Assembly (NCBI GenBank): GCA_000091205.1
Contig: AP006501.2
Direction: 5' to 3' (one strand)
Length of the DNA: 64,000 bases
Origin: Cyanidioschyzon merolae
Lineage: Eukaryota
Part shown: positions 4,912 to 56,100 of the stretch, in pieces
Layout of the letters: every line of letters begins with the position of its first letter
Numbering within the stretch: the stretch's first letter is position 1
Notes under the pieces: generated by a model
The model's database searches: none
What the model saw: only the letters and a program-made list of their open reading frames with translations
Told to the model about the DNA's origin: nothing
Made by a program: the position numbers and the translations under genes

Positions 4912-6361
4912 ATATTCAGCTGCTTTGACACAAAATAGAGCTGCTTTGGTGCAGAGATAATCCTCATGCGTAGAAGTGTAGCGCAGCCGTTTCCCGCGCT
5001 TGCGATCGCCAGCGGCCGCGGCATGCGTTCGCCTGGTGGAATGCCTCCAGCGGCAACATCAGGAACGCAACGCTGAACTGAGTGACCAGCTCCTGTCTAG
5101 AGATTTTACCGAACTTTTAGAGTCTTGGCGCTAAAATTGCGGGAAACAGGGTGAACCATTTGATTCGTCGTGTGATGATATGGTGTTGGGGGTTTCAAGC
5201 GGCGCATTCCGCGCTGTTCATCTGGAATTCATGATGTCATCGTGATCGGGATGCTTGTCGATGCACTAGAACAAGCGTTCGTAAATGAACCGATATTATG
5301 ATCCGAAACAGAGGTGCGGAACGTTGTTTTTCTGCATCCGTACAGCATGTTCATAGTATACGTTCTCAAAATTTTTGATCGATACGTTTCAAAGTAACTC
5401 GAATGCGCAGTTATTCGCGTCCCTGGATTGACCGAGGGACACACTGCCGTCCAGTATTGACGGAATATGCACAAGATCATGCCGGAGGTTGACTGAATAT
5501 CTTAGGTCAACTAATAGATGCCGTTTGAAAGAGATACCCTTCATTTTTTGCGGTTATCAATGCAACGGCATTCGACAGCAGTCTTATACCGCTCAGGGAG
5601 TATTTGTCAGCAGGGCGCCGTCTCTCTGGGATGGATGGAGAGGCGTCTTGGACTCGGACTCGAGTCATTGTCGTGATCGATTCGAGTGTGGAGGGCGTCA
5701 ACGCCGTACACGATAGGAACTTTAAGGAGTAGTCATTTATTCACAAGTTCTCCATCCTAGAGTTTCCTTACTTTTGTGTTTTATCGTGGACAACTTTGTA
5801 TTCTACAAATCCTTGATCGATTCGGAGAGCGACCGCTTACTTCAGCCGCGGCCAGTATACTCATAAATGGGATCGTCCGGAAAAAATCCGCGTCCATATC
5901 GTACAGCAGTGGGCGCGGAATCAGTGGAGATCACCCAGTCGAGCCCTGAGTGCCTAACACGGGCCTTTGCTGAGCTATAACGCAAGCGTTCATGTACCAC
6001 AGGGCGGCTTTCGAAGAATGAAATGTGGTGGACATCAGCGAACGCCCTTCCGCTGTCAAGCGTCATTGCTATGAAAGGTACACCGAGGCTATTTCTTAAA
6101 ACAAGATGAAAGAAGCATGCAAAGCGTAGATCACAACTGTCGACTGTGCGTGAAATACTTTGATACCAGCTGAAAACTCCAGCTTCGAGACGAGAACGCT
6201 GCTACTACCACGATCGTTTGAACGCTGATAACAGCACTACAGGGAAACAAGTGTCCAGCGTCTTGAATGCCAAAGATACCGTTGCGAAAGAGCAAGCAGT
6301 TGCAGAAAAAGCCCCTGACGCTAATCCTCATACAAGTCAGAAGTCAACCCTAACTTGAATA

Positions 6362-6858
6362 TACCAGTCCGTGCCAACAAACTGCATACCTTTCATACTC
6401 CGCTGATACGAACAGATGACAGCATTGCCTCTAGCACGCGCACCAACTCTAATACATACATACATACCAGACCGTGCCAACAAACTGCATACCTTCCATA
6501 CTCCGCTGATACGAACAGATGACAGCATTGCCACTAGCACGCGCACCGACTCTCATACATACATACCAGACCGTGCCAACAAACTGCATACCTTCCATAC
6601 TCCGCTGATACGAACAGATGACAGCATTGCCACTAGCACGCGCACCAACTCTAATACATACATACATACATACCAGTCCGTGCCAACAAACTGCATACCT
6701 TCCATACTCCGCTGATACGAACAGATGACAGCATTGCCTCTAGCACGCGCACCAACTCTCATACATACATACATACCAGTCCGTGCCAACAAACTGCATA
6801 CCTTCCATACTCCGCTGATACGAACAGATGACAGCACTGCCACTAGCACGCGCACCGC
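6362..6858. repeat. Roughly 103-bp tandem repeat (period 99-107), 5 units, with an embedded (ACAT)n microsatellite
   Basis: 'gtgccaacaaactgcatacct(t/c)ccatactccgctgatacgaacagatgacagcattgcc(a/t)ctagcacgcgcacc...catacatacata' recurs at 6371, 6474, 6573, 6680 and 6783. It lies in the divergent intergenic region between DHFR-TS and the kinase. Confidence 0.85.
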
Positions 6859-16890: not shown

Positions 16891-19333
16891 CTATGCTTTG
16901 AATATCGCTGTTCTGAATATAAAAAACATGACATAAGATCGCAAGGTCCGAGCGACGCACGCAATTCTGTGCGTTAAGTTTATCTTGTAACAGGTGTTTT
17001 CGCGAGTCTGACCCCTCAATATCCATCGACGCGTTTGAGTGCACGACGACGACAGCGTGGATGTGTATACACCGACGTATAGACGCTTCTCAGTCTTTCT
17101 CGACTGGCCACCTACTACTGGGTTCAAGTTCTCCTTGTGCAATTTAGCCCTGTGAGGCTGCTTCTTAAAGTTGGTTCGCGTCAACCCCGGAGACCTGCTC
17201 TCCAGCATCGCACATCTCCTGATATCAAGAGCGGCGTTAAAGTCACGATACAAGAACTCTATGCGATTCTTGCCTCTGATGGAACGCACCAGTGCAGGTA
17301 GGCCTCGAACTCGTGCCCCGTTCATTGCCATTTGCTCTTGCGTCAGCGCTCCGTACTTTTCTGTATCCCCAGGGCTCCGCTGACACGTTTTCGTCTCGAC
17401 CCTCTGAAGTGTGCACCTCTGCTCATGGTGTCTATAGGACATTCGGAACTCATCTGTCGGTATTGTGACGAAACGCTTTGCGCATTCTTTATACGTTCTC
17501 GATGTTGGAGCGGGTGTACACCCGTTTTGGGTCATCTAGCGCCCTGCTCCGAATGCGACTGCGGACCTTTAACTCCTGTCCTCCTTCAAGGCGCTCAACG
17601 CATTGAAAAAGTCGGCAAATGCTCGCTGCTTCCCGCAGTGTGGATTCGTACGCGGACGAGCCCACCGGAGCTTGGTATACTCTCTTCACAGCGCCTCCCA
17701 ATGCGCTACGCGAACTTTCGTGAATTCCCGAAAACCTCGACTGTTCGCTCCGCGGCTCGTCGCCTCGCTCATAGCTACCAGGTGCTCTTTCATATCTGCA
17801 TTCCACGAATCGATTTGCTTCCTTGCATTCATGATTCCCCGATTCTCGATAGTATCTTGCTCTCGAGAACCTCTAAAAGTCGCATGTCTTTCTGACCTTA
17901 GTTACCGTCAGTACCATCTGCCGCACGCCTGGGTACTCCGATGGTTACGATATTCGTGTTGCCGGGGTCCGCGCCAACACCCATGTCGTTCTGCGTCGCA
18001 GGACCCGCCTCATTCTGTTCTTTATGTGCATTGCCGAGAGCGATATCGAGGACTGACCAGGACGATCCGCCTCCTTGAAGCGCCTAGAGTGTACATTTAT
18101 TGTTACCCCATCGGTTTCGATCATCCCCATGAATACAGTTTTCTTGCTCTTTTTGAGACGTTTGAAATCGAAGATGCTCTTCCAGTACGTCTCCCGGTTC
18201 TCGCCGTTGAACGCCTCCCTGCTTACATCGAGCTCCGGACTGATCTCCTTCATGATGCCGTGAAGGACTCTGGAGTTGATTGAGACAATGCGCGACTTGA
18301 TCTCGCATATCGGAACGAAGTTGAAGCGCTTCTCCAGAATCGCAGCCTGCCGTCTCTCGGACTCTTGAATTCTTCGCCTATCCAGCTCTTTTTCGGCCTT
18401 GCGCTCGATCTCTCGATTCAGAAACACAAGCTATCACAGGACTAGGGTAGTACATCTTTTACCATCTGTTTTCCATATCTGATACCGTTTCTGGTGGAAT
18501 CGCCAGCCCTAGAACCGCATGCTGCGTTTGAACAGCTCCACGGATCACGGAAGATTCATTCTCTCTCCTGCGTAATTTCTACTTGTCTACAAATTCGATC
18601 TCCTGCTCAAGCTGACTATCGTTCGTGATGCCATTGATGAAGTTCCATATCCCTTTGCGAGACAGGCACGAGTAAAGTGCAAAGATGGAGCGTATCGTGA
18701 AATGTTCGGGGATCATGATCACGTGGTTCCTCAGGTTCATTAGGTACTTCAACGCTTCGTAGGTGTAAACATTCGAGTTCCGCCCCCCAGATCGAGTGCC
18801 TTCGAAGCGGTACTTGGGGCATTTTTCGTGGAGGGCATCCACCAGCTCATTTCTCCTCGACGCTTGCCCTGTCCCAAGCATCACGTACCTTATAAAGGTC
18901 TTTTCAAAAAATTCTTCCGGAACCTCGACTGTTCTGATGTCTGCGACATCGCGATACATCTCCCGCACCATACGCATCAGTCCTAAAGAAGGCTTCCAAA
19001 TACTCATCCAGTAAGACGCGACACGGTTTCTGATGGATTTTCGCAACTTTTGCCTATAAGGATGCTGGGTACGGCGTAGGAGAAAGGCTATCATTACCAT
19101 CTCGTCGAACTGTCGTCTTTCGAGCAGCTTCTGACGTTGGGCCTCCCCCTTTTGCTTCTTCGTCTTTTCCCGTTGCTATGGTGTCGGAAATGTTTTTCGT
19201 TTCTTGCTCTGGCAGCCGGCGACACCGGCCATCCGGGGTCCTTCGGCTCCGTTGCCGTTAATTTCCTTTTTCTATTCTTGAAAGCGATCCCATTTCGACT
19301 GCGTCGGCTAAAATCGCGAAAAATCACTTGCAC
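16891..19333 (-). pseudogene. Fanzor/TnpB-like nuclease gene, copy A (frameshifted, with internal stops)
   Basis: ORF fragments 18579..19100, 17945..18427 and 16891..17535 are collinear with copy B. Matches include 'FLLRRTQHPYRQKLR' against '[15 protein letters not shown]', and '[30 protein letters not shown]' against '[30 protein letters not shown]'. The RuvC-I block reads '[11 protein letters not shown]' (about 17945-17990) and the C-terminal motif reads 'YRDFNAALDIRRC'. Frame 17536-17600 reads '[28 protein letters not shown]', with two stops where copy B has '[13 protein letters not shown]'. Confidence 0.65.
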
Positions 19334-19500
19334 AAACTCGCTTGAGGGTTGAAATACGATTCAGCCGAAAGACTATACTTTGCTGGGGGCTCAACGCAAA
19401 TACATGTTGTACGTTAGAGCAACCCGCTCAGATGAAGCATCGCGTTTCCCATCAACGGCGTGATACGCGTCGTCTCTCACGCATGCAAGATAGGGAAAAG
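16990..19500 (-). mobile_element. Fanzor-family element, copy A (degraded, about 2.5 kb)
   Basis: Reverse-complement nucleotide homology with copy B extends from about 29920 and 19478 at the left end to about 32705 and 16990 at the right end. Identity is about 70%, higher in motif blocks. No transposase ORF was recognised inside the element. Confidence 0.55.
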
Positions 19501-29439: not shown

Positions 29440-29885
29440 CCACCGTGTGTCTCCACCCCAAAATTTCGACGATGCAATGCCCGTTTTCGAAAAAGTACCT
29501 GCCTAAGGTTCCACCTTCGAAGCGTCACCGTCTCGAAAACGCAAAAGCGCACGCTTCCGCAGTGCGCATTCTAGCGCGCGGCAAAGTGCGAAAGCAACAC
29601 GCATCCGGCGGCGGCGTGTCTACACGCATCCGGCGCTGGGATGGCGGGATCGCTGCGAGCACGCATGCTGCAAGCGTAGCGGCGCTATAGGCGCCGCTGC
29701 TGTCGCTATCGGCAAGCACTAGGCACACGCAATAGCACGTATGAAACGACCAGAATATCTGAGAAGAAGTACAGGTAATCTAACTTGGAGGAAGGTGCTT
29801 CATCATGGACGCTTTCCCGAAAGCCACTATCCTTTCCGAATTCTGGAATCCATGGTCAATGGAAACGTCTTGTTAATGAAAAAAA
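29440..29885 (+). repeat. Repeat 'U', copy B, immediately 5' of the Fanzor copy-B left end
   Basis: Direct-orientation homology with 19600-20170 (see copy A). Confidence 0.5.
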
Positions 29886-30220
29886 CGAATCGCGCTCGGT
29901 GGGCGCACCTGGGAGATCAGGCAGTCAACTGACGCGATGCGCGTGCCGTTGTTGAAGGGAAACTCATTTGGGATCACGAGCGTGTTGTTCAGCTGTAAAA
30001 TGTTGGATTTCCGTTCAGGTCGTAGCCAAGTAAAGTTTTTCAGTTTATTTTTGTTTCAAACTTCAAACACGTTTAGTCAAGTGTTTTTTCGCAGTATATA
30101 ACAGCAGGGCTCAAAGAGCGTTCTTTTTCAAAGAAACTAATAAAAGGAAAGTTATGAAAAACCAAGTCCACGATCCTGGAGCCCCAGTGTCGCCGGCTGC
30201 CAGAAAAAAAACAAAAAACA

Positions 30221-32530
30221 GTGCCGAGTCCAGAAGAAAAGGAAGAGAAGAAGGACCGAAAGGGGGAGGCCCTACGTCGAAGGCGGCACGAGAGACGACT
30301 GTACGACGAGGTGGTGGTGAAAACCTTTCTTCTTAAACTTATCCAGGATCCCTATAGGAAAAAGTTGCGAGGCGCTATCGAAAAACGTGTCGACACGTAC
30401 TCCAAGAATATTGTCAAGGCGTCGTCGGGACTGATGCATTTAGCGAGGGAGATGTACGAAGACGTCGCGCACATGGAAACAGTCGAGATTCCAGACGAGT
30501 TCTTCGACAAGACCTTTATTCAACACCTGATGCTTGGTACAGGGGAAACGCGGAGGGAAAATGAGCGGGTGCACGCCCTCCACGAAAACTTCGCGGGATT
30601 CCGCTTCGAGGGTAATCGATACAAGGGTGACTCGAATATGTACGGCTATGGGGCGATGAAGTACCTCACGAACCTGAAGAACCATTCGATAGTGAACCTC
30701 GAACGTTACATGATACGCGCCTTGTTTGCACTCTACCCGGGCATCTGTCCGAAAGGAATATCAGCGATTATCAATGGCATCACGCACGATCGCAAGCGTG
30801 AAGATGACATCGAATTTGTCGACAAGAAGGCATCAAAAGTGAGCACGAATGAAGCTTCTGTAATCCGTGCGGTTATACAAGAGCACCGTGCGGTACTGGG
30901 GCTGGTGAGTCCAACAGACAAGATATCAGAGTCGAAAAAGGATAAGGAAAGATACTATCGCCTCATCCTGTGCTATTTCGTGTTTCTGGACCGAGAGCTC
31001 GAACGCAAGTCGGAGATGAACCTGAGTGAAGAGACAAATGAAGAGTACGAGAGACGGAAGGCTGTCCTAATGGGGAAGCGCTTCAACGTGGTTCCAATGT
31101 CCAATATCAAGTCACATTATGTGACTACCGACTCCAGAGTCCTTTACGGCATCATGAGGGAGATCAGTCCCGAATTCAATGTTAGTGTGGAGGGCTTCAC
31201 CGGCGAAAACCGGGAGACGCACTGGAAGAATATCTTCGATTTCAAACGTCTCAAAACGAGCAAACAAAATGTATTCACCGGGATGATCGAAGCCGATGGA
31301 GTAGCCTTGTGTGTACACAATCGGCGATTGAAGAAAGTTCGTCCAACTCCGCCTTCGGCTGCGCCCGTCATGAAGGATGAAGAAAACAAAGAGGAGGATC
31401 CTGTGACGCAGGAGGAGCAGGATGACGACCTTGTCGTTGGCGTGACGAAGGATGAAGAAAACAAAGAGGAGGATCCTGTGACACAGGAGGAGCAGGATGA
31501 CGACCTTGTCGTTGGCGTGACGAAGGATGAAGAAAACAAAGAGGAGGATCCTGTGACACAGGACATGCATGATAACGATTTTGTCGTTGGCGTGACGAAG
31601 GATGAAGATGAGAAGGAGGCGAGTCCTGCGACGCAGGAGGTGGAGAATAACGACTTTATGGTTGACGCGACGAAGCATGAAGAAAAGAAGGAGGCGGATC
31701 CTGCGACCCACAAAGTGCAGGATAACGACTTTGTCGTTGGCGCGGACCCTGGGAATACGAATATCATAACCATCGCTGCTCCCAAGCGTGCGGAAGATGG
31801 TACTGATGGTAACTTACGTCAGAAAGACATGCGTCTGTTGAGGTTCTCGAGAGCGAGATACTATCGAGAATCGGGAATCATAAATGCAAGGAAGAAAATC
31901 GAGACTTGGAATTCAGGAATGAAAGAGCACCTGGAAGCTTCGAGCGAGGTGACGAGCCGAGGAGCGGACTTTGAAGCTTTTCGGAAATTCACGGAAGTTC
32001 GCGTTGCTCATTGGGAGGCGCCGTGAGAGGAGTATACCAAGTCCCGGTGGGCTCGTTTGCGAATGAATTTGTATTGTGGGAAGCATCGGGCATTCGCGAA
32101 TTTTTTCAATCAACTGAGTGCCCTGAAGGAGAATCAAAGTGAGAGGTTGGTAGTGACGTACGGAGCAGGGCGCTGGATGACCCAAAAAGGAACTACGCCA
32201 GCTCCAACGACGAGAACGTACAAGGAATGTGCAAGGCGTTTCGCTACGATGCCTGTAGATCGGTTCCGAACGTCCTATACACACCATGAACTGGGTTGTA
32301 CACTACAGAGAGTCGAGATGGAAAAGTGCCAACGGAGCTTTGAGGACATAGCAAAGTACGGACCGATGACGGGGGAGCAAATGGAAACAAGGGCGAACGT
32401 TCGTGGACTCCTTGCACTTGTTAGTACAGTCAATGGCAACGAAAAACGGATGGAGTATGTGAATCGTGACTTTAATGCCGCTCTCAATATAAGGAAATGT
32501 GCGGTGCTGGAGAAAAGACCTCCAGAGTAG
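30221..32530 (+). CDS. TnpB/Fanzor-like RuvC nuclease homolog (eukaryotic OMEGA-type); one in-frame TGA at 32024-32026 separates a 601-aa ORF (30221..32026) from an in-frame 157-aa ORF (32057..32530)
   Basis: The N-terminus is basic and NLS-like ('[20 protein letters not shown]'). RuvC-I-like '[17 protein letters not shown]' sits at 31727-31780, with the Asp codon at 31745-31747. The RuvC-II-position block is '[13 protein letters not shown]'. A Cys/His cluster 'YKEC...HHELGC...EKCQ' follows. RuvC-III hallmark '[15 protein letters not shown]' sits at 32456-32500, with the Asp codon at 32468-32470. Frame 2 is open from 30158. The track start is a GTG, and an ATG at 30154 lies in frame 1. Confidence 0.7.
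31372..31746 (+). repeat. 75-bp (25-codon) in-frame tandem repeat, 5 units, inside the Fanzor ORF immediately before RuvC-I
   Basis: The unit is 'gaaggatgaagaaaacaaagaggaggatcctgtgacgcaggaggagcaggatgacgaccttgtcgttggcgtgac'. Units 1 and 2 are near-identical, 3 to 5 are progressively diverged, and the last unit runs into 'DFVVGADPG'. Copy A has a single unit. Confidence 0.9.
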
Positions 32531-32705
32531 ACAAGACGGAACTTTATCGGACAACCTCTCAAAGTCGAACTATATGAGAAAAAGTTGGAAGACGTAGTGG
32601 GTGACCCGTCGAGAACGACTCGCAGCCGTCTGCACGTCAGTCGGACACGTCTTGTCCAAGGCGCAGTTGCTGCCACGACTGTACACAGCCGGAAGCTGTG
32701 ACTGA
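32440..32705 (+). ncRNA. Candidate omega-RNA / right-end scaffold region of the Fanzor element (inference only)
   Basis: The segment from the RuvC-III coding end to the right end is conserved at about 65-70% among copies A, B and C (core '...cgtcgagaa(c/a)gactc(g/a)(c/a)agccgtct(g/a)(c/t)acgtc(a/g)gt...'). By analogy with TnpB/Fanzor loci, the guide scaffold overlaps the 3' end of the ORF. Confidence 0.25.
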
Positions 32706-32723
32706 GATTACGCGAAAGCGCTC

Positions 32724-33428
32724 ATGGCGTCGACTGGATCTGCCCCTATTGAACACGCTCGGGAACCGTGTCCTGATCGGATTCTAGACGATGTCGGAGG
32801 TGCGTTTTGCATGGGCGCCATCGGTGGTAGCATCTGGCACTTTGTAAAGGGCATGCGCAACTCCCCAAGGGGCCAGCGACTCCTGGGCAGCATCGACGCC
32901 GTAAAGCTTCGCGCACCGACGCTCGGAGGCAGTTTTGCCGTCTGGGGCGGTCTTTTTTCCACTTTTGACTGTGCTATTGGCGGTCTACGCGGAGTCGAAG
33001 ACCCGTATAACGCCATCGCAAGCGGAGCGATCACCGGGGGTGTGCTCTCTGCGCGGAGCGGCCTCCGAGCGTCGGCACGCTCGGCGCTGATCGGTGGCGT
33101 CTTGCTAGCGATCATCGAAGGGCTCGGAATTATGTTGACCAGAATGACTGCGGAGATGGGCCCAACTCCGGAAGAGGTCGAGCGGATGCGGCGAGAGTTC
33201 GCGGAACAGCAGCATCGGCAGCGACTGGAAGGCGGTGCCGGTACCCGTACCGCCGACGGCTTTGCGGCTCCCGCTGATGAGCGTCTGGGCATGGGCGCGA
33301 ATGACGTCGTTTTGACAGAAAATTCTGGCGTTCGGGTCGGAGGCAGTGCGGACCCAAGCAGTCACAGTGGCCAGAACGAGCCTGAACGCCGCGGCGGTGG
33401 CTTTCTGCGTTCCCTTTTTGGTAGCTAG
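32724..33428 (+). CDS. TIM17: Mitochondrial inner-membrane translocase subunit Tim17
   Basis: '[89 protein letters not shown]' matches the Tim17 GxxxG-rich family signature. A Gly/Pro-rich C-terminal tail follows. Confidence 0.9.
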
Positions 33429-40700: not shown

Positions 40701-41913
40701 TTTCGCGTTCATCCCGTATGAACACATTGGCGGTGAGCAGCGGCTCTGCTGTATCCATTGCAAGACGCTTGTGTACCAATTGATCCACTTGATCGACTAC
40801 ATCGAAAACCAGTGCTCCGTCGTCATCCATTGGTATGATAGACAACACCGACGACTGCGACGATTCAGTTGCCTTCTCGCCCTGTGATTGTCGACGCCTC
40901 GTTCCTGCTGCCTCGCTTTCCAGCGTTTCATGCCGGCGTTTTCGTCGCCACGCCGCACTGCTCGCATGCGCTAGACAAGTAACTAGTCGTCGGTGCAGCT
41001 GTCTAAAAAGAATATTCCAGGCTGGCAGCGCCTTCTCGCTCTGACGCAGCAGTGCACGCGTCTGGCGCAGGGCGAAACAACACGCGCCTCGATACCCTGC
41101 AGCTTCAGCAGTAGCTGCGGCCTTCAGCCACAACAGCACGGTTTTCGGTTGGTAGTGCGTTGCCTTCGCGTACGCTTCGAAGGCTGCTGCGGGTTCACCG
41201 ATCCGTTCGTATACTTGTCCCAGGCTCCAGGCGCTCAGGTAACCTAGCCGCTTGATCCACGGGGCATCTCCCCGCTGCGGTCGGGAACTTGCCGACTCCA
41301 ACTTTTGTTGCTCAGCGAGCAGTCGCAAGACTCGTTCAAAACCGCTCGCTGCCTCGCTGAAACGTCCGTCTGCGAAAGCCTCGGCAGCTTGCGAGTATAG
41401 CCCTCGTAGTTCCGGCTCTAGCGGGAGTTTGGACGCAGGTTGATCACGTGTTACTTTGCTGGTTGCTTTCTCAGTTGATTCAATAGCAGATGCTGGCGCA
41501 AACCCCAGCATCTTCACACCCTGAGCCTTGTCAAGTCCAGTGAAGAGTGCGCGGGAACAACACGGCGTCGGTTTTTTTAATGGTGCGCACGAGCTATCAA
41601 CGTTTCGCTTTTTTTCGTTCTTCCGTGGACTCGGTTCAGATGAAAACGGAACCCTGAAGAGCGCGCTCGATTCGTTCATGCCGTCTTTCTTCCCCGGGAT
41701 TTTGGTACCTGTAAAGACTTGATATTCAATGAGCAGCATAGGAAGGTTTGCGGACTCATAGATTGGACTTGGATTCTCGGGCGTGTTTTCAGTTTGGCTG
41801 TTTCGACTTGCCGCCGCTGGGACATGAACGGTTCGCATCATCACGATGATTTGCGACGACCTCGAGCAACAGTTCGCAAAATACCCGAGCTTGTTATCGA
41901 TTCCATACATGGA
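34783..41913 (-). CDS. Large TPR-repeat-containing protein (about 2400 aa; possibly CABIN1/Hir3-like, unverified), with Ser/Ala/Thr-rich disordered regions
   Basis: One uninterrupted ORF. TPR-like helices run along its length, for example 'LGQVYERIGEPAAAFEAYAKATHYQP'. The track start is a TTG at 41991. The first in-frame ATG is at about 41911-41913, and the true start is uncertain. Confidence 0.55.
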   Translation of the reverse strand, partial: SMYGIDNKLGYFANCCSRSSQIIVMMRTVHVPAAASRNSQTENTPENPSPIYESANLPMLLIEYQVFTGTKIPGKKDGMNESSALFRVPFSSEPSPRKNEKKRNVDSSCAPLKKPTPCCSRALFTGLDKAQGVKMLGFAPASAIESTEKATSKVTRDQPASKLPLEPELRGLYSQAAEAFADGRFSEAASGFERVLRLLAEQQKLESASSRPQRGDAPWIKRLGYLSAWSLGQVYERIGEPAAAFEAYAKATHYQPKTVLLWLKAAATAEAAGYRGACCFALRQTRALLRQSEKALPAWNILFRQLHRRLVTCLAHASSAAWRRKRRHETLESEAAGTRRRQSQGEKATESSQSSVLSIIPMDDDGALVFDVVDQVDQLVHKRLAMDTAEPLLTANVFIRDERETAASFSAKGAHGHVTDARRSPLSSVGAAALPSSGVGDDAASFEQVAGRVATVMRTTTESSSFVQEGVSERVDSGMLRAGACVPAEAQESAPGLTSKKAIVTKLPNKLRASGASESPREGSEAAERQPVEHKHSKRTACESTRGTTSDPVTSLTASTRGRAASATAAVTVNEAMQQQQQQQRGICSTCQGGGVESDPQVVAVATVPPARSSRSGETCSEPNRAGVSTAESESPARRTRRSLRYETEASLRSSSVPRSMIIAGISAGEIPGGAGANGAAPASRLLPSNDQDAASATATPEAAAVLEQLRCQLHDALRDYDATEQQNPASSSQAAQVIESVQETPTARVANATIIDAVRSVGAPFQFHESLLPLTTLVNRILGEALDRMMTIPVRMRTTLARKLCRLYHLWISWHPNGTGSFVLGTPASSAIPQEERAHWWLVWMWRSLALLEVAFWAGDWSLVDDVLTRTRACFDGYMREGLLPSSTIRMLLLIRYMYLHALNLLRQKHWNAAMDALKRALALWEDVQRLQRDHTTVSEAHFVDSAGKRCTSGRLQRVSVSPQEPPTSQQSACAEREALQASSGYNECTIAASMEAEYQTEPSKANESTAAGVSVSQISVPRHAAGQFVADEVHPKDTADDTAHALQNDAATERFGRASGKYPARTETAIQGSVSLGCRNTVAPVTGTTATHALVFEDTSPLCEDMSVTESDAPVERLLRAWRLRRRASASTALLELPEASGNASQLASAEACRAQERCRSVSASTAAENGPEATSACQVLCSWMAGLHPDQLLEHAALPEETSLHLGKIDLLRCLQYAAFEQLWKSLGASEDTFQTEMLDSEAMLMRLLSFLDLPIETVQVRLRQLLSRYAGGAAVVAAQELQRVTLRVTAATASASAAPTARSPDSSPRLEAQAQRSREPSLSRWRKLAALAQSLRRELDALGKATLVVPAQLRHKLYQMLGVSLPRILDLLWDVAPSESIIEQNLHDQLLVEWAAVFGLFVVGRERFIRTHAFSDSDEAVRCSAGAFLHQLLHGLALRLQRGTALSMERRASERMRQACSLLYQLYAGMLWERLSAEQGARWFLGCSLCSPEWDPSWFSRLDWERIQCLHVLYGLDCSAIGLKSGPPVAASCSAWTLARALRPEQMVLPPEALCPALTLGQSELDDVLASRSRPRIRTLWQWTGKLIQAASGIEQRYLLPCYRDLLLYHFRLQMEYLDLEYKRVAEPERRARLLPTELLDALQTLIELLLPFFIGSAALKQDAPQQERCVGRKRLQGLLSPEADNPAPRISPYFRATRHESPGAAKSSTETASETAAAPTPATEMGTAASAPAAATQRKATGSGNASEAGVAAVEAVDPEAVSRDTSASAIDAPSSEAATAAVGIVADHPGKGTIERTEQQLACNSEVSNLEDRRALCPRLDDSELTLALATCMRHAAQFSLETAELIGNANRFRLHRYVEWLLTAHRFAVGVQTIASGGNKHAPDAVIIMTSHSGTAGHASAPEAAASVSCRHATGAKRTPNAHAVHTAAHWEALYCAYLLLPIHIPAAAWDTLAPDTKRAVESARASMPNLLCTLREQAHGKDDTPDAEDAPAAESEVALLLDYWQWLREVGEAAPPVSYASSVERIAERLARYEHALPRLSQQLHGQAQLQYSPWLEYRLAVLANALYQALGWIPSSKSAHPGTTTTRSTRSNGSNDELGSVLTQLAELPSYRSAYLYALGVFCGYQDAARAITALEPLFRVDASSASRHGYFWLMWNHRYLVAPEQLPHAPLLYDNHCFAYWQFRCFALYVRLLECTLRYDTMLALERTLSRRMQRHNALDAECLTLIVERNLFAFANGFAGVACPAAAAQELIQPVTATQLVRPVDLQLVWELYTDAVLVNDLLQDAGSMLDSPDVAWTGSAALVDACPWPLTGHNLPQVGESCGEAVLDLAERLLIIAAEAEGATNEHALQVLQRRCRHWFGRSV

Positions 41914-42960
41914 AACGCCACTGTTCTCGCTTCGCTCTCCATAATATCCTCGAACCTGGTACGCCTCACCTGCTGGATCTTCAATCACCAAACATAAGCG
42001 TGGGCATCGGGGAAGCTATCCAAACCGCTGGCTGGACGGAGAATCGTAGGCGGCTTCGCCACTTTTGTAAGCGGCTTTCACAAGCTGGTGCCTAAAGTTT
42101 ACTGACCCTGTCATGCCACATACTCGATTCTGTTCGAAACACGAATCCTCGTCCGGATATGCCAGCCGACACAATGGAACTCGACAGCAGCCGGATGAGG
42201 GTCACGACGCTTGCTGCCTGAGGCTCCCGACTCTAGTGTGTTCACGGCCAGGGGTCTTGGACTCGGACTCCAGGCATCGAGGCGGTCGTTTCCAATGGAC
42301 TTGTTGTGGTCGCCTTGCACGACGCGCAGGGAGTGCGGACGGATCGACGTTTCTCTACTTGTTCTGTAGGCTGGATTTTCCGTTCGGTCATTGCTTCACC
42401 AAGGGCAATATCGAGTTCGACTTGCTGCGTACCGAGTGGCGCAACGTGCGCTTGCACCAGCATCGAACAGCGTACGCACCGAGGAGATCGCCCAGAAGAA
42501 GCCCGTGGTGGTTCGGTATGACAACGGGCACGGAAACGGAGAAGAGCATCTGTGGAAGCCGCCTGTCGCGGTTAGGGGCATGGAGCGAGCGGCGAAGCAA
42601 GCCCTCACGGTCCATAGAGTGTACGTTATTGGCAAAGGTCTAGAGGTCATACGTGCACACCAGACCGCAAACAAGAGTGACCGCTTGAAAGAGCGCACCG
42701 GGTCTGTATGCAGAGAAGATGGGCATGGCGAACGAAGCGTGGATCGCGACTTGTACCTGTGCCTGATATGGGTCGATGAGAGCTGGAAACTGCGGGACCG
42801 GCACTTCAAACGCTGCCAACGATGTCCATCGCCTGCTGGCAACGGAGCTGGAGTGGCAGGAGTGTCCGGTGTACGCAGGTCCGCAGGAAAGCGACGGGGT
42901 ACGGAAGCGGCTCAAGAAAAGGTCCAAAACCGCAGGTTTCGTTGATCGTACCAAGATACC
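41637..42960. repeat. Segmental duplication, copy 1 (1.3 kb; includes the 5' roughly 120 codons of the TPR gene plus about 1 kb upstream)
   Basis: About 97% identical to 51797-53120 at a constant offset of 10160 bp. Identity starts at 'cagatgaaaacgg' and ends near 'cgttga'. Confidence 0.9.
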
Positions 42961-51470: not shown

Positions 51471-52151
51471 TCATGGAATTGGCGAGTTTGACTCTACATC
51501 GAGTGTCGGTTGCTTCCGTGGTTGGTGGTAACCATCGTGCAACCCGAGGGTCCCAGGTAGCTTGATTGACCCTGCATCATTAGAAAGGCGACGAGAAGTA
51601 TGCCTTATGGGCGAGCGCCGCTTACCTACTGAGCCGAGTCGGCTACACTCTTCTCGACTCGCGATAAATTTTCCAACGATCGGTTGTTTGGTCGCAAGGA
51701 TTGGTATCAGTGACCAGGCACGTCGCGAGTGCGAATATCTCGTTGATGAAGGAATTGAAACTTGCGCGCTGTGTTGGGCACCAGCACGACACGCCTCAGA
51801 TGAAAACGGAACCCTGAAGAGCGCGCTCGATTCGTTCATGCCGTCTTTCTTCCCCGGGAGTTTGGTACCTGTAAAGACTCGATATTCAATAAGCAGCATT
51901 GGAAGGTTTGCGGACTCATAGATTGGACTTGGATTCTCGGGCGTGTTTTCAGTTTGGCTGTTTCGACTTGCTGCCGCTGGGACATGAACGGTTCGCATCA
52001 TCACGATGATTTGCGACGAGCTCGAGCAACAGTTCGCAAAATATCCGAGCTTATTATCGATTCCATACATGGAAACGCCACTGTTCTCGCTTCGCTCTCC
52101 ATAATATCCTCGAACCTGGTACGCCTCACCTGCTGGATCTTCAAGCACCAA
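51471..52151 (-). pseudogene. Truncated duplicate of the 5' end of the large TPR gene, created by the segmental duplication
   Basis: The first 118 residues are near-identical to the N-terminus of the 34783..41991 ORF ('MV(I/L)EDPAGEAYQVRGYYGERSENSGVSMYGIDNKLGYF...ALFRVPFSSE'). The sequence then diverges into unrelated sequence at the duplication boundary, about 51797. Confidence 0.55.
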
Positions 52152-53120
52152 ACATAAGCGTGGGCATCGGGGAAGCTATCCAAACCGCTGGCTGGACGGA
52201 GAATCGTAGGCGGCTTCGCCACTTTTGTAAGGGCGATCCACAAGCTGGTGCCTAAAGTTTACTGACCCTGTCATGCCACATACTCGATTCTGTTCGAAAC
52301 ACGAATCCTCGTCCGGATATGCCAGCCGACACAATGGAACTCGACAGCAGCCGGATGAGGGTCACGACGCTTGCTGCCTGAGGCTCCCGACTCTAGTGTG
52401 TTCACGGCCAGGGGTCTTGGACTCGGACTCCAGGCATCGAGGCGGTCGTTTCCAATGGACTTGTTGTGGTCGCCTTGCACGACGCGCAGGGAGTGCGGAC
52501 GGATCGACGTTTCTCTACTTGTTCTGTAGGCTGGATTTTCCGTTCGGTCATTGCTTCACCAAGGGCAATATCGCGTTCGACTTGCTGCGTACCGAGTGGC
52601 GCAACGTGCGCTTGCACCAGCATCGAACAGCGTACGCACCGCGGAGATCGCCCAGAAGAAGCCCGTGGTGGTTCGGCATGGCACCGGGCACGGAAACGGA
52701 GAAGAGCACCTGTGGAAGCCGCCTGTCGCGGTTAGGGGCATGGAGCGAGCGGCGAAGCAAGCCCTCACGGTCCATAGAGCGTACGTTATTGGCAAAGGTC
52801 TAGAGGTCATACGTGCACACCAGACCGCAAACAAGAGTGACCGCTTGAAAGAGCGCACCGGGTCTGTATGCAGAGAAGATGGGCATGGCGAACGAAGCGT
52901 GGATCGCGACTTGTACCTGTGCCTGATATGGGTCGATGAGAGCTGGAAACTGCGGGACCGGCACTTCAAACGCTGCCAACGATGTCCATCGCCTGCTGGC
53001 AACGGAGCTGGAGTGGCAGGAGTGTCCGGTGTACGCAGGTCCGCAGGAAAGCGACGGGGTACGGAAGCGGCTCAAGAAAAGGTCCAAAACCGCAGGTTTC
53101 GTTGACAGTACCAAGAGATC
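51797..53120. repeat. Segmental duplication, copy 2
   Basis: See copy 1. ORFs 52273..52803, 52551..53105 and 52556..53002 are near-identical to 42113..42643, 42391..42945 and 42396..42842. Confidence 0.9.
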
Positions 53121-55559: not shown

Positions 55560-56100
55560 GTTTACACGTCGATAAAACGGCTGTGAACCGAGATTAGGTT
55601 TGGGATATCGCGGAGGTCGCTAGCCTGTGTAAGATTGTCCAATATCGTCGAGGACGCTATTGCTAGATTTGAACCTAAAGATATATATACATGCCAACTC
55701 ACAGACGCCTCCGAGTTTCTTACAACAGGCTCCTGCTGTCCGCTTCAGCTTTTCCGTGTACACCTCGAGCTGGAGAGGGTGTCCAGCAATGTTCGCTCGC
55801 ATCACATCCATGGGTCTCGTCTCCAGCACCGCATATCGTCTGATATTCATGGCGGCGTTCAAGTTGCGGTTCACCATTTCCGTTCGTTTATAGTTTCCGA
55901 TGGGACTCATCAATGCGAGGATTCCGAGAACTCGCGCCCCCAGTGCCTTTTGCTGCTCTGTATGGTTCCCGCGCTTTTCTATCGCCGGAGCGCACCGCTG
56001 CCTTATCTCCATCTCGGCCTTCTGAAGTGTACATCCTGGTTCATCCCTCGGATTTTCTATTTCCTCAAATGACCCCGATTGTCTAAGACCTTTGGTGATG
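55560..56100 (-). mobile_element. Fanzor-family element, copy C (3' fragment only, pseudogene)
   Basis: ORF 55620..56012 encodes 'CTLQKAEMEIRQRC...MVNRNLNAAMNIRRYAVLETRP...HPLQLEVYTEKLK', collinear with the copy-B C-terminus and with its post-stop extension ('QPLKVELYEKKLE'). Upstream homology is lost within about 100 bp. Confidence 0.55.

Follow-up and report, generated by a model that had tools for sequence, protein, structure and literature searches.

We analysed a stretch of 64,000 nucleotides (nt) from contig AP006501.2 of the red alga Cyanidioschyzon merolae, hereafter the window, which carries three copies (A, B and C) of the Fanzor1 element CMe-1A, a family already known in this species (Bao & Jurka 2013, PMC3627910). 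Comparison of copy B (29889–32700, plus strand, from the left end to the inferred right end) with its metagenomic relatives makes it probable, by analogy with characterised systems, that the 3′ module of the family is the scaffold of a Fanzor guide RNA (omega-RNA); copy B itself is an eroded relic. An initial annotation of the window had flagged 32440–32723 as a candidate omega-RNA scaffold just ahead of the Tim17 gene, a proposal that was right in kind for the family but wrong for copy B. Judged from its sequence, most of 32440–32723 is plain ancestral coding sequence. While the element itself was known, its probable omega-RNA is new.

CMe-1A has been described as a family of about 150 copies of about 3 kb each, sharing roughly 80% identity with the consensus, without terminal inverted repeats, with a target-site duplication that could not be determined and with an unknown transposable element class (PMC3627910). 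The source of the window was confirmed by four of its encoded proteins, DHFR-TS (BAM83012), Tim17 (BAM83018), ABCG2 (BAM83015) and guanylate kinase (BAM83025), which are exact C. merolae 10D entries.

The 3′ RNA module of the CMe-1A family

A metagenome scan provided 80 loci, taken from 333 confirmed stretches, and 47 independent copies were used for structure analysis. By BLAST, the 3′ homology of copy B with these roughly 80 metagenomic copies always stopped between B 32686 and 32696. After a conserved block, CCACTACTGTA, a long hairpin was found in nearly every copy, and independent loci diverged at the 3′ base of this terminal stem, which is where homology between copies ends; the flanks differ right after the stem, which would agree with a variable guide but is expected at any transposon end. 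Based on the base of the family terminal stem (CACAGC-cggaa-GCTGTG in copy B, 32684–32700), the right end of copy B was placed at about 32700. Weak similarity to the family loop region continues past this point, and the exact end of copy B could lie anywhere in 32686–32722; an extension to about 32720 was considered on the strength of that similarity, and 32700 was preferred.

The last ~135–145 nt of intact family copies form a two-domain fold on the sense strand. For the last 134–144 nt, z-scores of −6.0, −6.1, −6.5 and −4.6 were obtained at loci L067, L027, L018 and L041, respectively, and none of 200 shuffled sequences folded as well. Over 46 copies, the median z-score of the module was −2.2 in the sense and −0.7 in the antisense orientation, with 41% below −3. 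Domain 1 is closed by a helix in which the coding stretch GCAGUAGUGG (VVG codons) pairs with a block of the 3′ untranslated region (UTR), CCACUACUGU, and domain 2 is the terminal stem. This closing helix was present in 72% of the minimum-energy folds of the 46 copies. Its 5′ strand (32591–32600, plus strand; GACGUAGUGG in copy B) had 87% of cells paired over 48 copies, and its 3′ strand (32673–32682, plus strand; CCACGACUGU in copy B, with a T to G change) is non-coding and conserved to 90% or more, a conservation that is accounted for by its pairing with the coding strand of the helix. The module further contains a small hairpin (32643–32657, plus strand; GGACA-CGUCU-UGUCC in copy B, and AGAC-GUUUU-GUCU in a shifted register in the family, with 84% of cells paired in the family register) and hairpin 1 of the 3′ UTR (32660–32674, plus strand; GGCGCAGUUGCUGCC in copy B). 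No notable fold was detected at the distant relative L088 in three 141-nt intervals from about 80 nt before to 220 nt after the stop codon, where the element end is undefined.

The terminal stem, which in copy B occupies 32684–32700 (plus strand, CACAGC-cggaa-GCUGUG) and adjoins the right end, was found in 46 of the 47 independent copies with a median length of 17 base pairs (bp), and 138 of its 749 pairs (18%) were G·U. Within a fixed interval of 56 nt, the median sense-strand energy was −19.0 kcal/mol compared with −14.0 kcal/mol in flanking controls (p=2.6e-6), and the corresponding z-scores were −1.66 and −0.06 (p=3e-9). The sense strand was more stable than the antisense strand in 39 of 47 copies (p=1.2e-6), compared with 52 of 93 controls. 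Stem sequences are quite different between subfamilies while the pairing is kept, and they do not lend themselves to alignment by columns.

In its last ~170 nt, the ancestral open reading frame (ORF) no longer shows codon periodicity. Among 47 copies, the variability at codon positions 1, 2 and 3 was 0.081, 0.058 and 0.184 in 31745–32484, compared with 0.121, 0.097 and 0.133 in 32485–32657, that is, third positions became more constrained (p=0.007) and first and second positions less constrained (p=1e-4). Third-position variability was lowest at an upstream hairpin, CTGGAG-N7-CTCCAG (32507–32525, plus strand), which lies within coding sequence (LE.RPPE) and is a possible 5′ scaffold stem. The arms of this hairpin were near-invariant in 48 copies, four-fold degenerate sites included, whereas the loop varied, and 271 of 288 cells were paired; the hairpin may extend the module to about 225 nt. 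As to covariation, the pair with the highest mutual information of all columns (0.91), and the strongest covarying pair of the region, was B 32664/32669 in hairpin 1, with C-G in 18 copies and G-C in 17. Double-sided pair changes were counted in 23–28 cells compared with 13–15 in shuffles, a level that none of 500 shuffles reached, and nearly all of them came from this one pair in hairpin 1. When RNAalifold was applied to the whole 429-column alignment, it returned a weak consensus (−8.4 kcal/mol) that missed the terminal stem because of insertions and deletions.

The family stop codon, a TAG that lies in GTCTAGGGCG in most copies, aligns to B 32657–32659, which is CAA in copy B. Upstream of it, relatives P0006 and P0009 read ...GQPLKVELYETTLEAVV...RRLHLGW... 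(in the longer stretch ...ENFLGQPLKVELYETTLEAVVDGRSKRTRRRLHLGWRRFVQG...) with no stop at the site where copy B has a TAG, and the proteins P0008, P0015 and P0016 terminate at ...HVSWRLL; premature stops fall at different places of the tail in different family copies. The double duty as coding tail and RNA scaffold that the initial annotation had suggested is supported at the family level, by codon periodicity and folds, but not for copy B (z-score −0.52).

In working family members, the last ~135–145 nt would fold as the scaffold, with the closing helix of domain 1 and the terminal stem of domain 2, and flanking DNA just past the terminal stem would be transcribed as the guide, as it is in the solved Fanzor1 and TnpB systems.

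The Fanzor1 nuclease and the decay of the window copies

The copy B protein alone had no Pfam or PDB match, and neither had a profile of its close relatives only; these close relatives, which bear DUF8286, are confined to JGI and ENA metagenomes. A profile search over 1.8 billion representatives yielded 1,437 relatives, 84 of which were aligned, and the profile of these 84 matched in the PDB PpFz1 of Parasitella (9cf0, E 8.8e-21), SpuFz1 of Spizellomyces (8gkh, E 4.4e-13) and GtFz1 of Guillardia (9cer, E 5.7e-9). Fanzor1 homology is thus visible only with a profile of distant relatives, the single-sequence and shallow-profile searches having failed. In the 84 relatives, an Asp (D484, in G.DPG) and the Glu (E656, in VDEFRTS) of the RuvC triad are invariant, and the other Asp (D725, in NRD.NAA) is nearly so. 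An AlphaFold model of relative P0001, made with a deep alignment, reached a predicted local distance difference test (pLDDT) score of 82.4 and a predicted template modelling score of 0.81; a run with 41 close relatives gave a pLDDT of 37 and was discarded. When the P0001 model was compared with the PDB by Foldseek, the top seven matches were all Fanzor1 proteins (E 4e-16 to 1e-13, target-normalised template modelling score up to 0.72), in agreement with the Fanzor1 fold (WED, REC, RuvC and TNB). Sub-threshold matches to the Cas12f1-like TNB domain PF07282 were obtained in 4 of 10 relatives. By the modelled fold, together with the profile matches to characterised Fanzor1 proteins, the CMe-1A family is a true Fanzor1.

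Two further observations concern the protein. At 31372–31742, between the N-terminal half and RuvC-I, the Fanzor ORF contains 4.9 tandem copies of a 75-bp unit (25 amino acids, acidic), the number of which varies from relative to relative; in the model this part (P0001 residues 375–469) is disordered. At L088 565–963, the distant relative P0094 (36% identity) lies just 3′ of a fragmentary gene that encodes a DDE_3 (Tc1/mariner-type) transposase domain, and judging by this locus other branches of the Fanzor1 clade of CMe-1A may ride DDE transposons.

Copy B is a relic, with a dead nuclease, a broken closing helix and a truncated terminal stem. Its reading frame (30221–32530, plus strand), delimited by the ORF list, the translation and the family profile, is disrupted by two in-frame stops (TGA at 32024–32026 and TAG at 32528–32530), and in RuvC-II a CGG codon (Arg) at 32261–32263 replaces Glu656, so that the catalytic triad kept in the family is incomplete in copy B. 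The flagged region divides into coding sequence of the RuvC-III block (32440–32530), the former C-terminal coding tail (32531–32659, plus strand), which is cut off by the TAG in copy B and read through by relatives with open frames, and a remnant of the non-coding right end of the element (32660–32700). The fold of 32594–32700 has an energy of −39 kcal/mol compared with a shuffle mean of −37.2 (z-score −0.52 in sense, antisense no different). Three of the ten pairs of the closing helix are lost between GACGUAGUGG and CCACGACUGU, and 0 bp of the helix is present, compared with at least 7 bp in 72% of copies; the terminal stem has 6 bp compared with the family median of 17 bp. In the module-fold comparison copy B ranked 38th of 47. 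What survives is hairpin 1, the upstream hairpin and the short terminal stem.

All three window copies are pseudogenes, and an uninterrupted frame was found in none of them. Copy A (17071–19476, minus strand) is heavily degraded, with many stops and frameshifts in its reading frame, and is truncated at its 3′ side at family consensus position 42; copy C (55694–56070, minus strand) is a C-terminal fragment only, with homology ending at consensus position 45. Identity between copies is 72–76% for B and A and 67% for B and C. Copies A and C lose family homology within 3 nt of each other (consensus 42 and 45), before the small hairpin and the stop codon, and the near-identical breakpoints may reflect coincidence or a preferred breakpoint. 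The sequences downstream of A 17071 and C 55694 are unrelated to each other or to any other copy; an alternative 3′ end common to A and C was rejected, as their downstream sequences match no other copy. A structured module at the nuclease 3′ end that reaches the right end was detected computationally in the family but not in copy B, and the structured right end is missing altogether from copies A and C. No intact Fanzor of the CMe-1A family is annotated in strain 10D, and the homologues found were all metagenomic.

Several details of the initial annotation could be reproduced in this segment. The TAG at 32528–32530 in copy B is present, with TTG in A and GTG in C at that place; copy C reads on in frame as protein (...HPLQLEVYTEKLK, compared with TRRNFIGQPLKVELYEKKLE... 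after the stop in B); and the core motif ccgtcgagaacgactcgcagccgtctgcacgtc has counterparts in A and C. A post-stop segment common to the three copies does exist, but it covers about 110 bp after the stop instead of the roughly 200 bp proposed. Homology between B and A ends at B 32641 and A 17071, not at about 32705 and 16990, and copy C, thought to extend to 55600, loses homology at about 55694. Beyond B 32641 three-copy identity is 20–40%, equal to background. Identity between B and A is 71–75% in 32286–32530, 55–72% in 32531–32641 and 36–40% beyond, and that between B and C is 54–58% in 32531–32641 compared with 61–66% in the upstream coding block. The post-stop segment is not specially conserved, its identity staying within or below the level of the remaining element. 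What resemblance the window copies keep past the stop goes back to an ancestral coding tail common to them, which is the correct account of A and C.

Element ends, Tim17 and surrounding sequences

The Tim17 gene (BAM83018; 32724–33428, plus strand; PF02466, E 8e-32) follows copy B closely. Its ATG at 32724, as originally called, was confirmed, and the right end that had been put about 20 bp from it leaves, with the end at about 32700, a spacer of 23 nt (32701–32723, plus strand) without firm family homology. If copy B were active, its guide would correspond to 32701 to about 32720 in the Tim17 leader, and nothing indicates that it is made; a guide from copy B reaching the Tim17 5′ end, as first imagined, would be possible by position, with no sign of use. 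An insertion-free Tim17 locus was not found among six related contigs, all of which carry the element at 99% identity. The insertion is fixed in every related strain sampled, and its 99% identity runs evenly over neighbouring genes and gives no selection signal. Given a 2.8-kb element that is fixed on the same strand 23 nt before the essential Tim17 ATG, the Tim17 promoter and 5′ UTR would lie inside the element or read through it. That copy B lies so near Tim17 is the result of an insertion that is old and fixed, and no RNA-guided targeting of Tim17 is indicated.

At the left side, many family copies begin to match at B 29885–29891, at ATCGCGCTCGGTG..., and the left end was set at 29889. It opens with GCGCTC-GGT-GAGCGC and further small stems, the sequences of which differ between copies. 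The ~175 bp upstream of the left end of copy B (29710–29885) are a repeat that many metagenomic loci contain, in one orientation or the other, and that need not have a Fanzor copy beside it; about ten other loci have another recurring module, distinct from this one, ahead of the left end. In comparison with the copy B orthologues of related strains at L083, L085 and L086, the 5′ half of the element (29700–31592) is 86–97% identical, while the 3′ half and the neighbouring genes are 99% identical, a contrast that points to conversion events among the copies or to chimerism in the metagenome assemblies.

Right-end-like modules (equivalent to B from about 32635 to the end, with the terminal stem included) also occur without a Fanzor coding tail in several loci, namely L071 (1603–1705), L063, L036 (1266–1340), L064 (1074–1148), L053 (955–1027) and L017 (21–81). 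A full element begins about 700–800 nt downstream of these solo modules, which lie in a shared region of at least 2 kb without an obvious ORF and may be ‘ghost’ omega-RNA loci or part of a composite element.

Elsewhere in the window, 41628–42956 and 51788–53116 form a direct 1.3-kb duplication at a distance of about 10 kb, the two units being 98% identical and having matching ORF pairs (176 and 184 amino acids), and two tandem arrays are present, at 1438–2495 (14.9 copies of a 71-bp unit, 96% match) and at 6361–6856 (4.8 copies of a 103-bp unit). A scan for bacterial promoters and terminators, which is not relevant to a eukaryote, found nothing.

Alternative readings and comparison with known systems

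Several observations weigh against an omega-RNA scaffold at the family right end. Column-wise covariation is thin, with a coding part that barely varies and a terminal stem that cannot be aligned by column, and two mutually exclusive helices use one 5′ strand (221–230 with 257–267 or with 307–316), between which the data do not separate. Across copies, RNA stability showed no correlation with ORF intactness (rho −0.02), and the whole window had no match to the curated covariance models of Rfam at the gathering score. No transposon-adjacent motif (TAM) emerged at the left end, where the upstream flanks consist of a few recurring modules and offer too few independent flanks for a motif. Moreover, hairpins that are favoured on one strand and tolerate G·T pairs would equally suit a transposition signal in single-stranded DNA. 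Such a cis-acting hairpin signal, used by a transposase acting in trans (IS200/IS605 or Helitron-like), might be the main function of the structured right end instead of a guide scaffold. It would fit an element without terminal inverted repeats or a detectable target-site duplication, with hairpins at both ends and a terminal stem exactly at its boundary, as well as the independence of RNA stability from ORF intactness and the tail-less modules that several loci have some 700 nt ahead of the left end. We nevertheless consider it unlikely, because no HUH or other transposase was seen beside any copy in the flanks examined (a genome-wide search was not made) and none has been reported for the family, because a closing helix that spans about 90 nt from coding sequence to 3′ UTR would be unusual for a DNA end signal, and because 18% of G·U pairs and the strand asymmetry suit RNA better. 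As signal and scaffold roles overlap in TnpB systems, this reading is also compatible with an omega-RNA.

A neutral residue of the ancestral coding tail, with no function at the nucleotide level, would explain that identity in 32531–32641 (54–72%) does not exceed that of the rest of the element, that A and C lose homology at about 32641–32645 and that all three window copies are pseudogenes. While common descent of this kind is the correct account of copies A and C, it is contradicted at the family level, where it leaves unexplained the loss of codon periodicity, the z-scores of −4.6 to −6.5, the strand asymmetry relative to controls and the hairpins of different sequence at one site; as an account of the whole it is improbable. 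Even less credible is that copy B still makes an omega-RNA, with a guide that lies in the 5′ end of Tim17 and acts on the locus or regulates it. The right end 23 nt from the ATG, the retained hairpin 1, upstream hairpin and short terminal stem, and an insertion that is fixed, with 99% identity, in each of the sampled related strains would speak for it, but copy B folds at the shuffled level, its closing helix lacks three of ten pairs, its terminal stem is reduced to 6 bp, and its protein has two stops and no catalytic Glu; nor is an intact family Fanzor annotated in 10D, with all homologues found being metagenomic, and the 99% identity extends evenly across neighbouring genes and hence carries no selection signal. 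An mRNA 3′ UTR element for 3′-end formation or for stability of the Fanzor transcript, unrelated to a guide, would likewise be RNA-like, on the sense strand and just past the stop codon. We give it hardly any weight, as the structure runs precisely up to the boundary of the transposon, coding sequence overlaps with its upstream half, the solved Fanzor1 systems have their omega-RNA at the corresponding spot, and modules exist without an ORF.

The omega-RNA scaffold thus remains the reading that we favour for the family. A more extended version of it appears rather doubtful at present, in which an undescribed CMe-1A guide RNA would have a scaffold of about 135–225 nt, a closing helix from codons to 3′ UTR and a long guide-adjacent stem with sequence turnover but kept pairing, possibly with free-standing modules, intact members from Cyanidioschyzon populations of hot springs, and thus from an extremophile red alga, would be active RNA-guided nucleases, and copy B would separately supply the Tim17 promoter or 5′ UTR. 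For the window itself the consequences are small, the flagged stretch being an end, now eroded, of a transposon from a known family and Tim17 a bystander. At the family level, a probable omega-RNA is here outlined computationally for the first time in the one Fanzor1 family that has been reported from a red alga, and the right end and true stop codon of CMe-1A, both left open in the 2013 description, are now set. The case further illustrates that loss of codon periodicity and strand-asymmetric folding can locate a scaffold despite weak column-wise covariation. Relatives with uninterrupted C-terminal frames and well-folded 3′ ends were found in hot-spring metagenomes and are candidates for acid- and heat-adapted compact nucleases.

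Among the systems to which CMe-1A can be compared are the IS200/IS605 elements such as ISDra2, in which the scaffold of the TnpB omega-RNA (reRNA) overlaps the 3′ end of the nuclease gene and ends at the right end, the guide being taken from the flank; these elements have subterminal hairpins and no inverted repeats. CMe-1A differs from them in its eukaryotic host and in that no TnpA partner was found, and searches based on sequence alone gave no link to TnpB beyond the sub-threshold PF07282 matches. Its hairpins at both ends and, following PMC3627910, its missing inverted repeats and a duplication that could not be determined recall HUH-type elements in general (IS200/IS605, Helitron, Replitron); Replitron-like proteins have been reported to be absent from red algae.

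The solved Fanzor1 systems offer a close parallel. Like SpuFz1 and GtFz1, the CMe-1A nuclease is a Fanzor1, and in these two the omega-RNA is encoded at the 3′ end and extends as far as the right end, just beyond which the guide is located (PMC10432273; PMC11423790). Fanzor1 RNAs vary widely in length, the solved ones share a 7-bp first stem-loop, and the omega-RNA of GtFz1 overlaps the last 17 codons of the nuclease gene (PMC10432273; PMC11423790). SpuFz1, unlike CMe-1A, has inverted repeats and a 75-nt scaffold placed wholly after the stop codon (PMC10432273; PMC11423790). Compared with the solved Fanzor1 RNAs, CMe-1A is set apart by a hypervariable end stem with a median of 17 bp, a putative scaffold of about 135–225 nt, the lack of inverted repeats and a helix that links coding sequence and 3′ UTR. 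The solo modules without a Fanzor gene (L071, L036, L064, L053 and L017) resemble the ‘ghost loci’ of Saito et al. (2023, PMC10432273), which are omega-RNA-like right-end modules lacking the gene, but they are embedded in a region, at least 2 kb long and common to these loci, just upstream of a full element, and are not short units with inverted repeats at their boundaries. In the Fanzor papers searched, neither the main text nor the available supplements, those of Saito et al. included, mention C. merolae. The description of CMe-1A itself (Bao & Jurka 2013, PMC3627910) predates the discovery of omega-RNA and gives no 3′ RNA structure, and relative to it the fold in two domains, the stop codon of the family and the precise right end are new.

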